Positions 34,703-53,523 are shown, counted from the first letter of the stretch. The stretch: 64,000 nucleotides of DNA from an uncultured Chloroflexia bacterium (GCA_963749705.1 CAVVNQ010000003.1:512001-576000); one strand, 5' to 3'. The notes: a model not told the origin generated them from the sequence alone. A program made the numbers and translations.

Positions 34703-36256
34703 TCAGCGGTGCTCGAGCTCGCGATCGAACTGGCGCTTGAGGAGCCACAGGAACACGATCCCGGCCAGGATGAAGGCGAGGACGATCACCATCGCCTGGC
34801 GTCGGAAGACGCTCTCGTCGATCTTGGCCGTGGCCAGCTCCTGGGCCGCCTCCGCCCGTGCCTTCGCATCGGTGGACAGCTCGGCGACGAGCTTGAGCTT
34901 CGTGGTGTGCACGGATGCCTGCGCCTGGATCAGGCTCGTCTTGGCGCCGACCAGCCCCACCTCGGCATCCGAGGTGATCATGCCCAGCCGGGAGGCCTCC
35001 TCGATCTTTGCGCTGGCATCGTCGTAGGCCTGCTCGGCCGAGGTGACGGCGGTCGAGATCCCCTGGATCTGGGCGTAGATCTGCGAGTCGGGGTGATGGC
35101 AGGTGTCGCACCGCCGATCCGGCTCGCTCGCGAACCGGTTGAGCTGGAGCCGCAGCTGGTGGGTCACCAGGTCGTGGCACGTCGAGCAGTCGTAGTCGGG
35201 CGGCGTCGGGTGGAAGAACAGCTGCGAGCTGGGCTGCGACACATCGTGCGTTCCATGGCACGTCCAGCACTGCGGTGCCGCGGCCTGGAGCTCGGAATGG
35301 CGGCTCTGCTGATACAGCTCCTCGGTCGCGGTATGGCACTTGCCGCACACCTGGACGACCGTCGCCGATGTCGGCGGCTTCGCATCATGCGAGCCGTGGC
35401 AGGACGCGCAGCTGGGAGCCCGGACGTCCTTGTTCTCGAGCAGCGCCACGCCGTGGACGCTCTTGGAGTAGATCTCGTACTGGTCGGTGGGGATGCCGTA
35501 GGGCTGCATCCGCGCGGGATCCGCGTGGCAGGACGCGCACAGGTCGGGGACGTTCAGGGCGTACACCTTCGCCGTCGGGTCGGAGACCTTCTTCACGTCG
35601 TGCGAGCCATGGCAGTCGATGCAGATCGCGACCCGCGTGTCGGCGGCCGTCGCGAGCCGCTGGCCGTGGACGCTCGACCAGTACTTGGCGTACTCATCCG
35701 TGGGCAGGCCCGTGCCGCGCATTCGTTCGACGTTCGCGTGGCAGCTGGCACACACGCCGACGGCGTCCATTCGATCGGGGGCGCCGACGAACCCGTTCGA
35801 GGCGTCCATGGCCACCGTGATCTGGTCGGAGCGGGGATCGCCGCCGTGGCAGTCCGCGCACGTCACGCCCGCGGCTGCGTGGGCGCTCGTCTGCCACGCG
35901 GCCGCGATGGCCGCCTGCTTGTCGTTGACTGCACTGTGGCAGTCGTAGCAGCCGTTGGCGCCGCCGCCCTCGGGATGGGCGATGATCGCCGGAACGGGCG
36001 GCGGCGAGACGAGCGGGAGCTCGGACGGCTCGGGTGTCGCCCCGAACAGGGGGTTCAGGGTCGCGGATGCGGATGGGGTCGGCGTCGCCGTATCCGACGA
36101 CGCTGCCGGGCTGGGACTCTCGGCCACCGCCGACCAGGCGAAGGCGAACCACAGGATCACGGCCGCGCCGATCACGGGCGCGACCCGCAGCACGCGGCGA
36201 ATCGTCGTGGCTCGGGCGGGGTTCGGCCGCATGGGTGTCTCAGCCGACATAGCCAC
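34703..36256 (-). CDS. Decaheme c-type cytochrome with N-terminal signal/TM and C-terminal TM anchor
   Basis: 10 CxxCH motifs (CYDCH, CADCH, CASCH x3, CIDCH, CGKCH, CWTCH, CSTCH, CDTCH), a helical C-terminal region and a TM segment; overlaps the cytochrome b stop. Confidence 0.9.
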   Translation of the reverse strand: MAMSAETPMRPNPARATTIRRVLRVAPVIGAAVILWFAFAWSAVAESPSPAASSDTATPTPSASATLNPLFGATPEPSELPLVSPPPVPAIIAHPEGGGANGCYDCHSAVNDKQAAIAAAWQTSAHAAAGVTCADCHGGDPRSDQITVAMDASNGFVGAPDRMDAVGVCASCHANVERMRGTGLPTDEYAKYWSSVHGQRLATAADTRVAICIDCHGSHDVKKVSDPTAKVYALNVPDLCASCHADPARMQPYGIPTDQYEIYSKSVHGVALLENKDVRAPSCASCHGSHDAKPPTSATVVQVCGKCHTATEELYQQSRHSELQAAAPQCWTCHGTHDVSQPSSQLFFHPTPPDYDCSTCHDLVTHQLRLQLNRFASEPDRRCDTCHHPDSQIYAQIQGISTAVTSAEQAYDDASAKIEEASRLGMITSDAEVGLVGAKTSLIQAQASVHTTKLKLVAELSTDAKARAEAAQELATAKIDESVFRRQAMVIVLAFILAGIVFLWLLKRQFDRELEHR

Positions 36257-51761: not shown

Positions 51762-53523
51762 GGGAGCTCTCTGCTTCGAGGTGGACGATGATCCTGGTCC
51801 CCTGCTTCGGGGCAGTATGCACAACAAGGGTGCCACCGATCTGTTCCACCCGCTCCCGCATGGACGCGAGCCCGAAGCCGCCGTCCATGGACCCGGCCAC
51901 GGTGCCCAGGTCGAAGCCGACGCCGTCGTCCTCGATCGTAAGCGTGGTCGCCGCGGTGGCGCACTCCATCCGGACCTGGACGTGGGTCGCCCGCGAGTGC
52001 TTGCGGGTGTTGGTCAGCGCCTCCTGCACGACGCGCAGCAGCTGGACCTCGCTGCGAGGCGTCAGCGAGGCGCGGGTGTCGCCATCGCAGGTGAGGGTGG
52101 CCGCGATCCCGGTCTGCCGGCTGTACTTGCGCAGGTACTCCCGCAGGGAGCCCTCGAGCCCCGTCTCCTCGCGAACGGTCTCGCGCAGCCCCAGGATCGC
52201 CTCGCGCACGTCCTGGTAGGCCTCGTCGGCGGTGTCGGCGATCTGCGACAGCTCGGCGGCCATGGTGTAGCTCGCCTCATCCTTGGCCCGGCCCTCGAGC
52301 GCGCGCAGCTGCAGGTGGATCACGCCCAGCACCTGGGCCAGGCTGTCGTGCAGCTCGCGTGCGATCCGGTCACGCTCGGCATGGATCGTCCACTGCTCCT
52401 CGGCTTCGTGGAGACGGGCCGTCCGAACGGCGATGGTCGCCATGTCGGCCAGTGCGCCCAGCAGCGTCCGCTCGGCCTCGTTGAACGCCTGCCCCGCGCG
52501 GACCACGCACAGCTCGCCCAGGATCCCGTCAGGCCCGCGCAGCGGTCGCGCCGCCCACGTCCGGTTCGCGTCGACCGCGAGCAGCGGGCACTCGGGGTTG
52601 CGCGGGTGGATGGCGCCCGTCGCGCGGTGGACGATCAGGCAGACGCTGCCGTCGTCCGCGATCGCCATGCGCCCCTGGCCGCCGGAAGACCCCGCACGGG
52701 TGGTGTCGGTGAGGCATACGACGGCGCGATCCGCACCCAGCAGCTCCCGCGCATGACCGGAGATCGCGTCGAGGACGTCGTGCAGGTCAGCCCGGCGAGT
52801 GAGCTGGAGCGCGACCTCGTACAGCGCGGCGCGCTCCCGTTCCCGGCGATGCAGATCCGCGACCGTGAGTGCGAGCTGCGCGGCGCCCGCGATCTCGCCC
52901 GTGATGTCGGCGAGCGCGGCGGGCGAGATGTCGGGATCGACCGCCGGATGGATCACGACGCGCAGGTGTCCGATCCGGTCGCGTCCCCGGATCAGCGGCA
53001 GGTCCAGGACGCCGGTGTCGAGCTCCGCCCGGCGCGTGAACGAGGGCGTGTCCTGCTCCGGGTCTGCCGGCGCATCGAGCAGCGGGGCGAGCCAGCTGAG
53101 GCCCGTCGCAAGCGGGTCCGGCCGGCGGATCGTCAACGGGTCGCCGCCCGGGGTCAGGATCGAGACCGTGCCGGCGATGGCGCCGGTCTGCGTGATGAGC
53201 CGGTCGAGCGCCTGCCCGAGCAGGTTCGGCAGGGCGAGGCCGCCCCGGACGGCGGAGCTCACCGCGTGGGTGACGGTGAGGTCCTTGTTCCGGGCCAGCA
53301 GCTGCTTCTGGGTGCGGTCGAGGTAGATCGAGACGAAGGTCGCAAAGATGACGATCGCGCCGCCCATGATCATCGCGGACAGCACGTGGGCGTCGTCGCC
53401 GGTGACCGTGCGATCGAGGAACAGGAACCGGACCACCTCGAAGGCCCAGACGAACACGACGGGCACGATCATCGTCGCCCACTTGAGGCGGTTGAGATCG
53501 CGTGCGCCCTGGGGTTCGCTCAT
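51718..53523 (-). CDS. Membrane sensor histidine kinase with two GAF-like domains (HisKA_3)
   Basis: Two TM segments, ERDRIARELHDSLAQ, QEALTN..KH, EDDGVGF and GFGLASMRER. Confidence 0.92.
   Translation of the reverse strand: MSEPQGARDLNRLKWATMIVPVVFVWAFEVVRFLFLDRTVTGDDAHVLSAMIMGGAIVIFATFVSIYLDRTQKQLLARNKDLTVTHAVSSAVRGGLALPNLLGQALDRLITQTGAIAGTVSILTPGGDPLTIRRPDPLATGLSWLAPLLDAPADPEQDTPSFTRRAELDTGVLDLPLIRGRDRIGHLRVVIHPAVDPDISPAALADITGEIAGAAQLALTVADLHRRERERAALYEVALQLTRRADLHDVLDAISGHARELLGADRAVVCLTDTTRAGSSGGQGRMAIADDGSVCLIVHRATGAIHPRNPECPLLAVDANRTWAARPLRGPDGILGELCVVRAGQAFNEAERTLLGALADMATIAVRTARLHEAEEQWTIHAERDRIARELHDSLAQVLGVIHLQLRALEGRAKDEASYTMAAELSQIADTADEAYQDVREAILGLRETVREETGLEGSLREYLRKYSRQTGIAATLTCDGDTRASLTPRSEVQLLRVVQEALTNTRKHSRATHVQVRMECATAATTLTIEDDGVGFDLGTVAGSMDGGFGLASMRERVEQIGGTLVVHTAPKQGTRIIVHLEAESSRGTHSAASQGAARR

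Follow-up and report, generated by a model that had tools for sequence, protein, structure and literature searches.

Several described multiheme cytochrome systems resemble the gene island analysed here, and the closest is that of Thermincola potens and T. ferriacetica, for which the available portions of PMC7911101 propose a chain of the membrane decaheme ImdcA, the periplasmic decaheme PdcA, the cell-wall hexaheme CwcA and the surface cytochrome OcwA. CwcA was modelled there as an OmcS-like polymer from its homology to OmcS, and a porin-less cytochrome chain that crosses the wall of a monoderm is, as a proposal, already known (PMC7911101). According to the accessible part of PMC13712944, minimal omcE clusters always contain two beta-propeller lipoproteins, many of them have glycosylation genes downstream, and OmcE subunits are joined by a histidine given to the heme of the next subunit. 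The Uet cluster of 'Ca. Tenderia electrophaga' and Gallionella has been proposed to serve electron uptake in aerobes (10.1101/2022.05.06.490989; PMC10734462, both in their available portions), NHL proteins adjoin outer cytochromes in Desulfovibrio ferrophilus, and surface multiheme cytochromes of Ardenticatena maritima 110S have been proposed to transfer electrons in both directions (PMC5808234, available text). Here, we describe an island of 17 genes at 34703–53523 of a 64,000-nt stretch of DNA, hereafter the window, from an uncultured Chloroflexia bacterium (GCA_963749705.1, CAVVNQ010000003.1:512001-576000). With moderate confidence, we read this island as encoding a porin-less multiheme chain on the outer face of a monoderm, Limnocylindria-type membrane, linking the quinone pool and the cell surface.

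Because the window is ~72% G+C, raw lists of open reading frames (ORFs) are noisy; genes were called by third-position G+C and six-frame translation, and family labels were taken from Pfam and NCBIfam scans. The 17 consecutive genes, g01 to g17, all lie on the minus strand, from the ATG of a sensor kinase at 53523 to the stop of a decaheme cytochrome at 34703, with intergenic gaps of −44 to 266 nt. They comprise a two-component system (g01–g03), an extra Rieske protein (g04), a cassette of tetratricopeptide repeat (TPR) protein, NHL propeller, hexaheme and stalked cytochrome (g05–g08), a further TPR protein and maturation genes (g09–g12), a membrane decaheme (g13), a lipoprotein (g14) and a Rieske/cytochrome b/decaheme module (g15–g17). 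An earlier reading of the same DNA, made from the sequence alone (the sequence-only reading), had listed 17 co-oriented genes in this order, and gene calls and family matches agree with it, at exactly 34703–53523. Its total of 30 heme motifs also stands (six in g07, three plus one in g08, ten in g13 and ten in g17), except that one is Cx3CH, leaving 29 CxxCH, and its claim that porin genes are absent is borne out, since none of the 17 island proteins matched a porin or beta-barrel family in Pfam or NCBIfam. Two details had to be dropped: the small extra ORF, for which the gaps hold just three candidates of 30–35 aa with third-position G+C of 0.70–0.77, none convincing, and the hexaheme start at 47685, which alignment of homologues moves to the ATG at 47535. 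An Rfam scan of 33000–58000 returned 0 families, and a scan of the island for sites resembling promoters and terminators, uninformative at such G+C, gave 0 and 5, respectively, where 4.3 terminator-like sites would be expected.

Compared with Thermincola, the island shows the same general scheme and the same heme numbers: both would be monoderm and porin-less, with two decahemes, one of them on the quinol side, a wall hexaheme and a surface cytochrome. The components differ, however. Whereas CwcA is homologous to OmcS, g07 has no OmcS similarity among Protein Data Bank (PDB) sequences; no OcwA chain is among the PDB matches listed for g08, the orthologues of which match the MtrC/MtrF domain; and the second decaheme, soluble in Thermincola, is here the putative anchored c-subunit of a Rieske/b complex. 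The island further adds NHL, TPR and PCYCGC proteins, a two-component system and a ResBCA set of its own, and its host is a mesophilic, probably aerobic member of the Chloroflexota, whereas Thermincola is a thermophilic, anaerobic Firmicute. By gene content, the Uet cluster is similar in combining NHL-repeat proteins, CcsA/CcsB, TPR proteins and several multiheme cytochromes in one conserved cluster, but it belongs to diderm Proteobacteria, and an outer-membrane beta-barrel, c7-type triheme cytochromes, a cupredoxin and an undecaheme cytochrome are among its parts. Ardenticatena shares with the island's host the phylum, presumed monodermy and surface-localised multiheme cytochromes; it belongs to another class, and the available text of PMC5808234 describes no such gene cluster and does not mention NHL. 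The literature searched held no description of the island, nor of extracellular electron transfer in Limnocylindria, the nearest reports concerning Anaerolineae/Anaerolineales and Ardenticatena; no paper linking the two was found there, in agreement with the view that this lineage is not known for such a system.

Scanning genomes with a profile built from the hexaheme alignment confirmed 196 places, and the best 72 loci among them were analysed within ±10 kb; the 17 proteins were compared with these loci by tblastn, and presence was counted on the same strand and only where the flank sufficed. By label, 58 of the 72 loci belong to unspecified Chloroflexi, Chloroflexia or Chloroflexota, 11 to Limnocylindrales/Limnocylindria, 2 to Anaerolineaceae and 1 to Actinomycetota; in NCBI taxonomy, Limnocylindrales belong to Candidatus Limnocylindria, a class of the phylum Chloroflexota. 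The host is a high-GC member of the Chloroflexota, of Limnocylindria/Ellin6529 type. Of these loci, L003 is the closest: two stretches, of 10,993 and 9,325 nt, align to the window at 87.6% and 91.5%, respectively, and because they take in genes outside the island, the island is native to the lineage. A preprint (10.1101/2021.08.23.457424), in the sections available, groups Ellin6529, Limnocylindria and Edaphomicrobia as 'Eulabeiota', finds genes for outer-membrane synthesis lacking and infers that these bacteria are monoderm, a literature inference that backs the probable monoderm host of the sequence-only reading. The same source reports cytochrome c oxidases in nearly all 'Eulabeiota' genomes and describes Limnocylindria/Ellin6529 as inhabitants of soils, lakes and groundwater that live as facultative aerobes on organic carbon and trace gases (10.1101/2021.08.23.457424).

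Gene order is conserved beyond chance, the same genes being co-linear in most of the 72 loci with enough flank. This applies to the regulators (g01 in 46/51 loci, g02 in 52/56, g03 in 53/59), the extra Rieske gene (g04, 42/60), the cassette (g05 in 59/62, g06 in 61/64, g08 in 54/60), the second TPR gene (g09, 54/59) and the maturation genes (g10 in 50/58, g11 in 48/56, g12 in 46/55), with the NHL gene upstream of the hexaheme gene in 61/64. In many loci g13 follows g12, mostly close to the end of the fetched flank. The distal part of the island is more mobile: the Rieske/b/decaheme module lies upstream in L017, L020, L034 and L066 and is inverted in L015, and in L002 g14–g17 are missing at this site. 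There, fdhD stands directly after g13, and g14–g17 were therefore inserted or deleted at that point. In L024, L025 and L066, genes for a sugar transferase, methyltransferases, a GDP-mannose dehydratase and a ParA-like ATPase follow the cassette in place of the maturation genes. Among 20 unassigned ORFs scanned in 14 inspected loci, a sample that did not take in every ORF, no porin or terminal-oxidase family was detected, and 5 of the 20 matched no family at all. Beside the relocated module of L015, a gene at 18965–20113 (minus strand) encodes three CWB2 cell-wall-binding repeats; the CWB2 domain is typical of Gram-positive surface-layer proteins.

Two modules of the island point to the quinone pool. 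The first is g13 (38663–40447), a decaheme protein with an NrfH/NapC-type N-terminus, a membrane helix at residues 100–118 and 10 CxxCH motifs. It scores 41.2 bits against Cytochrom_NNT (PF03264; cut-off 24.1), its N-terminus matches the NrfH chain 2j7a_C at E 3e-9, and it bears six hemes beyond the tetraheme NapC/NirT domain. No equivalog-level match was obtained (TIGR03153 for NrfH, 55.8 against 134.2 bits; TIGR02161, 24.2 against 310.6; TorC, 31.2 against 455). A CxxCHxM motif at heme 1 and a Lys are both conserved, and we take these to be quinol-site features of NrfH. The sequence-only reading had called g13 a 10-heme protein of NapC or ImcH type; the NapC/NirT assignment holds, with an NrfH-like N-terminus, whereas no ImcH-named family appears among its Pfam and NCBIfam matches, which involved no direct comparison with an ImcH sequence.

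The second module comprises a Rieske protein (g15, 37333–37803), a cytochrome b (g16, 36240–37331) and a decaheme cytochrome (g17, 34703–36256), packed with a 1-nt gap between g15 and g16 and a 17-nt overlap between g16 and g17. While g15 matches Rieske (PF00355) at 53.2 bits and a PetC-like model at 80.5 bits, the latter under its cut-off, g16 joins b6-like and subunit-IV-like parts in one protein with seven hydrophobic segments (Cytochrome_B PF00033, 173 bits; Cytochrom_B_C PF00032, 53.4 bits). A signal peptide, 10 CxxCH motifs, a short P/S-rich linker and a C-terminal membrane helix at 488–506 make up g17, which we regard as the putative c-subunit of this complex. In place of cytochrome c1, cytochrome f or a dihaem QcrC, the third gene of the bc-type complex thus encodes a decaheme, and the actinobacterial QcrA and QcrB models scored far under their cut-offs in the NCBIfam scan. 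Rieske/b complexes with multiheme c subunits and Geobacter Cbc-type quinol oxidoreductases likewise combine a b6-type cytochrome b and a Rieske protein with a multiheme c rather than c1 or f. The g15–g17 set resembles these in pairing b6-type g16 and a Rieske protein with a multiheme c, and the best NCBIfam match of g16 is the ExtP b-type cytochrome model; it differs in that g16 stays under the ExtP cut-off (230 against 290 bits), the decaheme is anchored C-terminally, and a second, free-standing Rieske gene lies by the cassette. This extra copy, g04 (49922–50452), carries a Rieske [2Fe-2S] domain (39.5 bits) behind a single N-terminal hydrophobic segment that follows RRR and presumably anchors it to the membrane.

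The central cytochrome, g07 (46195–47535), is a secreted hexaheme of 446 aa, ~420 aa once a cleavable signal peptide is removed, with 6 CxxCH motifs and a Paired_CXXCH_1 match of 73.5 bits. The mature protein begins with A-D-G-G-P-H at residues 26–31 (~47443–47460, minus strand), invariant among homologues, and the His of this motif lies ~15 residues ahead of the first CxxCH. At E ≤ 1e-3 the family comprises 1903 representative clusters, a number that falls to 274 at E ≤ 1e-30, and it includes a short branch of ~320 aa, in which 4 of 120 listed members are named, all 4 of them from metagenome-assembled genomes (MAGs) of Actinomycetota. In three sets of family members that together cover both branches, A-D-(G/N)-G-P-H is kept in 113/120, 118/146 and 111/118, and six CxxCH in 116/120, 116/146 and 117/118. 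Signal peptide, N-terminal motif, six hemes and a length of 320–450 aa characterise the family, which occurs in MAGs of Chloroflexota (Limnocylindria) and Actinomycetota. An ESM Atlas search with g07 returned nothing but other Paired_CXXCH_1 clusters (Chloroflexota, Actinomycetota, Bacillota, Thermodesulfobacteriota and others). What g07 and g08 have in common is the first paired-CXXCH unit only (E 1e-6 with an octaheme g08 orthologue, 0.21 with the g08 of the window). In L017, L020, L024, L025, L034 and L068, two hexaheme paralogues stand in tandem ahead of an octaheme g08. The conserved C-terminus of g07 was weighed as a possible sortase signal, which was rejected because the protein ends in a proline-rich tail and has no hydrophobic segment there.

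A G+C-rich stem-loop lies ~22 nt past the g07 stop codon, at ~46140–46175 on the minus strand. The 230-nt region past this stop in the window folds with z = −3.18, and a hairpin of ≤ −25 kcal/mol occurs within 100 nt of the g07 stop in 59/69 loci (≤ −30 in 42/69). The counts at ≤ −25 past other genes are 2/63 for g06, 3/48 for g10, 11/50 for g09, 17/58 for g05, 25/60 for g08, 24/53 for g02 and 28/48 for g12. Stem sequences vary from locus to locus. From this hairpin we infer that g07 may be made in excess, its mRNA being stabilised or transcription partly terminated at that point.

The ligands available to the hemes were counted as residues conserved at ≥ 90% in orthologue alignments, a measure that counts and does not replace spectroscopy. 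Conserved His number exactly 12 for the 6 hemes of g07 (68 sequences), 21 for the 10 of g13 (30 sequences) and 20 for the 10 of g17 (6 sequences); CxxCK is found in 0/68, 0/30 and 0/6 of these orthologues, respectively. By this count, all 26 hemes of g07, g13 and g17 can be bis-His. For its 4 hemes, the heme domain of g08 offers 10 conserved His, two beyond what bis-His ligation needs. Because conserved His suffice and CxxCK is absent, electron transfer is favoured over catalysis, and the cytochromes give no sign of the open active-site hemes that the sequence-only reading had named as a reason to abandon its proposal.

Downstream of g07, g08 (44948–45970) combines a signal peptide, a stalk at residues 36–172 (137 aa, 75% P/S/T/A) and a four-heme domain with three CxxCH and one Cx3CH. 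Its orthologues are mostly octahemes of 700–1000 aa that end in the same Cx3CH motif; of seven tested, five pass the Pfam cut-off for the MtrC/MtrF domain at 31.4–41.8 bits, one carries Laminin_G_3, which is lectin-like, and one carries PKD. Because of the stalk, the MtrC/MtrF-domain orthologues and the Laminin_G_3 and PKD domains, g08 is probably a surface-exposed terminal cytochrome. The likeness to the Shewanella CymA/MtrCAB system thus lies in an MtrC/MtrF signature in the g08 family, in a NapC/NirT-family quinol dehydrogenase that would feed multiheme wires, and in the paired-CXXCH units that g07 shares with PDB entry 6r2q chain A; the differences are that no MtrB-like porin is present, that the g08 of the window has four hemes and a sub-threshold domain score, and that no OmcA/MtrC or DmsE model passes its cut-off, g08 staying far under that of TIGR03507 (OmcA/MtrC). 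Elsewhere in the window, a secreted-protein gene at 28262–30826 (minus strand) contains three 100% identical tandem 369-bp units at 29466–30503, each encoding an ~85-aa domain and a P/T/A-rich linker that resembles the stalks of g08 and g17.

The cassette g05–g08 has a history of its own. Against L003, the flanking genes show 93–99% identity (g03, 86%), dS (synonymous divergence) of 0.11–0.33 and dN/dS (nonsynonymous to synonymous ratio) of 0.03–0.30, whereas g05–g08 (44948–49706) show 67–72% identity over the aligned parts, dS of 0.61–0.83 and dN/dS of 0.28–0.37. The raised dS of the cassette indicates replacement by recombination with a divergent allele. Across 41 loci, identity of the cassette and of the backbone is uncorrelated (Spearman 0.23, p 0.15): L033 has 78% identity in the backbone and 42% in the cassette, L062 52% and 66%. 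The hexaheme tree contains two deep clades, one with 14 rows and the other with 44 (SH-aLRT, a branch-support test, 100), and the nearest relatives of the window's hexaheme in it are those of L002, L001 and L006, not L003. These comparisons indicate that the cassette of TPR, NHL, hexaheme and stalked cytochrome is exchanged independently of the backbone. Since it is swapped as a unit, the g05–g08 proteins would be expected to work together. The pattern resembles that of surface-structure loci, an analogy that suggests selection at the cell surface.

In this cassette, the first gene, g05 (48678–49706), encodes a TPR protein that matches many TPR families, with a membrane helix at residues 35–53, and is separated by a 1-bp gap from g06 (47621–48676), an NHL beta-propeller (NHL, 95.9 bits; SGL, 50.2 bits) with a helix at 36–54 preceded by RRKK. 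Topology prediction gives g05, g06, g12 and g13 one N-terminal membrane helix each, with the bulk of the protein outside. Upstream, g01 (51718–53523) is a sensor histidine kinase with two N-terminal membrane helices and GAF (35 bits), HisKA_3 (60.7) and HATPase_c (55.9) domains, NarQ/NarX-like in the NCBIfam scan at scores under the equivalog cut-offs. The response regulator g02 (51051–51761), of NarL/LuxR type, matches Response_reg (101.4 bits), GerE (75.2 bits) and the NarL model (205 bits against a cut-off of 250). The 141-aa g03 (50463–50888) has no Pfam match and a weak match to the N-terminus of NarP (E 1.3e-5); aligned with the receiver of g02, it reads YS for DD and Glu for the phospho-acceptor Asp, as a degenerate receiver.

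Ahead of the maturation genes lies g09 (43548–44714), a bitopic protein with a cytoplasmic N-terminal part, a helix at 168–186 and an outer TPR part (TPR_11, 47.9 bits; TPR_CcmH_CycH, 26.2 bits against a cut-off of 42), which is a possible apocytochrome chaperone. It is followed by g10 (41978–43444), a ResB/Ccs1 protein (PF05140, 240 bits), by the CcsB/ResC heme lyase subunit g11 (41080–41964; TIGR03144, 229.8 bits, above the cut-off of 187.6) and by g12 (40455–41051), a membrane-anchored ResA-like thiol-disulfide oxidoreductase (AhpC-TSA, 92.8 bits; Redoxin, 74.5 bits; ResA NF002854, 101.6 bits, below the cut-off of 170). Judged by these matches, the island carries the ResB/Ccs1 and CcsA/ResC core of system II. 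A DsbD_TM/CcdA gene was not found in the island of the window, and among the 14 inspected loci, L012, L020, L034 and L061 have a CcdA-type gene between g09 and g10. The lipoprotein g14 (38070–38642) belongs to the PCYCGC family (PF13798, 80.6 bits) and has a lipobox-like N-terminus; its location differs among loci.

Taken together, regulators, system II, two quinol modules and secreted or surface cytochromes sustain most of the self-contained quinol-to-surface conduit put forward by the sequence-only reading; the flow, which that reading took as outward, could also be inward. In the chain we favour, electrons would enter through g13, the g15–g17 complex or both, be relayed by abundant g07 in the wall zone and end at an MtrC-like g08 that touches an insoluble or macromolecular redox partner. 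The TPR protein g05 and the NHL protein g06 may serve as a scaffold that positions or assembles g07 and g08, with maturation by g09–g12 and perhaps g14, and regulation by the two-component system g01–g03. Flow could be outward, with Mn(IV), Fe(III) or humics reduced under low oxygen, or inward, with Fe(II), Mn(II) or reduced humics as electron donors. The Rieske/b complex would point to a fairly high-potential partner, such as Mn(IV) or oxygen-linked chains, or to reverse, uphill flow in uptake, and g07 could act as monomers, small oligomers or a polymer.

Several points weigh against such a conduit. All 72 loci, and with them every relative, come from MAGs, and the conduit is proposed from sequence. 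Monodermy of the host is likewise a genomic inference, taken from the available sections of a preprint (10.1101/2021.08.23.457424) and from the lack of porin genes, and exposure of g07 and g08 at the surface is deduced from signal peptides, the stalk and the evolution of the cassette. The island is modular and not one fixed unit, given the absence of g14–g17 from L002 and the moved modules of L015, L017, L020, L034 and L066. The g08 of the window itself scores 23.2 bits for MtrC/MtrF domain II/IV, below the Pfam cut-off of 30. Counted ligands are compatible with a heme that may have an open or His/Met site. Rieske centres are high-potential, and for this reason they are poorly matched to low-potential bis-His chains that would lead electrons to Fe(III) oxides. 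Finally, because the lineage has oxidases and is at least facultatively aerobic, as far as the accessible preprint goes, the Rieske/b genes and the maturation genes, the only ones in view, could simply serve aerobic respiration. If the conduit is real, a class-wide, regulated, porin-less chain with 30 hemes would add a large group of monoderms that may exchange electrons with minerals or humics and would enlarge the tiny set of monoderm pathways, essentially Thermincola and relatives. The island also supplies candidates for study, namely the hexaheme family and its distinctive N-terminus, the MtrC-like cytochrome on its stalk and the Rieske/b complex that includes a decaheme.

The last of these objections leads to the alternative that survives best, namely that the genes are housekeeping: ordinary cytochrome c maturation plus a complex III of Rieske, b and decaheme subunits, with cytochromes that shuttle electrons to terminal oxidases or reductases and not outside. 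The cluster is very widely kept in the lineage, it includes ResB, CcsB and ResA, with CcdA in four of the inspected loci, and its Rieske/cytochrome b pair is canonical. The cytochrome c oxidases reported for nearly all genomes of the lineage fit this account (10.1101/2021.08.23.457424, sections available), as does the NarL/NarX-like regulator, of a type often tied to respiratory switching. However, a membrane oxidase would not need 30 heme sites, a wall-type stalk of 137 aa or lectin-like and PKD domains on g08 orthologues, and it is g05–g08 that are swapped among lineages, not the maturation and bc genes. Moreover, the scan of 20 ORFs in 14 loci, within ±10 kb and short of every ORF, met no terminal-oxidase family. 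We therefore consider the housekeeping account improbable, at perhaps the level of an outside chance worth keeping in mind; were it true, the locus would still describe an unusual complex III in this lineage.

Nested within the conduit reading is a more specific proposal, that g07 polymerises head-to-tail into a conductive, OmcS-like filament through or beyond the wall, with g05 and g06 as assembly factors. Six hemes and exactly 12 conserved His make an all-His hexaheme possible, as in the OmcS, OmcE and OmcZ nanowires of Geobacter and Desulfuromonas, and beta-propeller and TPR neighbours and tandem paralogues, the latter in six inspected loci, are further likenesses. The A-D-(G/N)-G-P-H motif is kept family-wide, the Actinomycetota branch included, and OmcS joins its subunits through a His of the N-terminal region given to the heme of the following subunit (PMC7911101, available portions). 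An NHL propeller precedes g07, and glycosylation genes adjoin the cassette in 3/14 inspected loci, where sugar-transferase and methyltransferase genes come after it (L024, L025 and L066), an arrangement comparable with omcE clusters (PMC13712944, accessible part). The conserved hairpin past g07 would suit a high-copy 'major subunit', the hypervariability of the cassette is pilin-like, and, more speculatively, the two surplus His of g08 would suit a cap or anchor that donates a His.

Against a filament stands the comparison with known nanowires, which differ in having no sequence similarity to the proteins here and in being hosted by diderms or archaea; nor does the island hold a beta-barrel gene. 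Searches of PDB sequences, a set that we take to hold the OmcS, OmcE and OmcZ chains, returned none of the three at E ≤ 10, by phmmer with g07 and g08 or by hmmsearch with a 60-sequence g07 profile. By sequence and by profile, g07 matched only the paired-CXXCH units of 6r2q chain A, which is presumably MtrA. An AlphaFold2 model of g07 (60-sequence alignment, no hemes) reached a mean pLDDT of 52.7 and a pTM of 0.55, and Foldseek with this poor model gave 0/166 PDB matches at E ≤ 0.001, carbonic anhydrases and similar proteins ranking on top; the model of the g08 heme domain (12-sequence alignment; pLDDT 44.4, pTM 0.26) is unusable. Comparison of folds is impossible because both models are too poor. 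A prediction of two copies of mature g07 (27–446, no hemes) gave scores of 0.28, 0.53 and 0.00, the mark being 0.42, with controls that were not folded, and bears neither way on self-association. The His near the N-terminus of g07 could equally ligate a heme of its own subunit, and the remaining arguments for a wire are analogies. The OmcS-like nanowire of the sequence-only reading is thus not supported, and we hold filament formation by g07 to be unlikely. Equally doubtful is the broader idea that the g07 family represents a sequence-independent, monoderm family of self-assembling cytochrome wires, linked by His, assembled by TPR and NHL proteins and capped or anchored by g08. If it were true, abundant, mostly aerobic bacteria of soils and lakes would be electrically linked through their walls to minerals, humics and neighbours.

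It is very improbable that the cytochromes are NrfHA-like enzymes, that is, quinol-linked reductase or oxidase subunits for nitrite, hydroxylamine or sulfur compounds: the NrfH-like N-terminus of g13, short local matches of g17 to NrfA chains (best E 6.6e-4 over ~55 residues) and the NarL-type regulators would suit them, against which stand the missing CxxCK, conserved His that cover bis-His ligation of each heme in g07, g13, g17 and g08, an NrfH model score of g13 far under its cut-off and, within the island, no NrfA, HAO (hydroxylamine oxidoreductase), octaheme reductase or molybdoenzyme family in Pfam or NCBIfam.

The genes flanking the island are those of ordinary metabolism. Upstream, at 53641–56981 (minus strand), lie a NuoE- and NuoF-like fusion and an Fe-S protein like the N-terminus of NuoG, as in NAD-linked modules of formate-dehydrogenase or hydrogenase type; downstream, fdhD occupies 33807–34481 on the plus strand. 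Two further plus-strand genes, at 1534–3828 (764 aa) and 11848–12513 (221 aa), are well supported as coding, with third-position G+C of 0.88, and have no Pfam match at E ≤ 0.01. An unusual fusion at 24108–25451 (plus strand) encodes a 447-aa protein with a DoxD-like membrane domain and a C-terminal Rieske domain. At 61563–63506 (minus strand), a molybdopterin oxidoreductase gene for a formate-dehydrogenase-like alpha subunit contains one in-frame TGA at 63246–63248, followed by a His codon, a motif that we take to mark the selenocysteine/cysteine active-site position of formate dehydrogenases. The gene probably encodes a selenoprotein and is not a broken gene.

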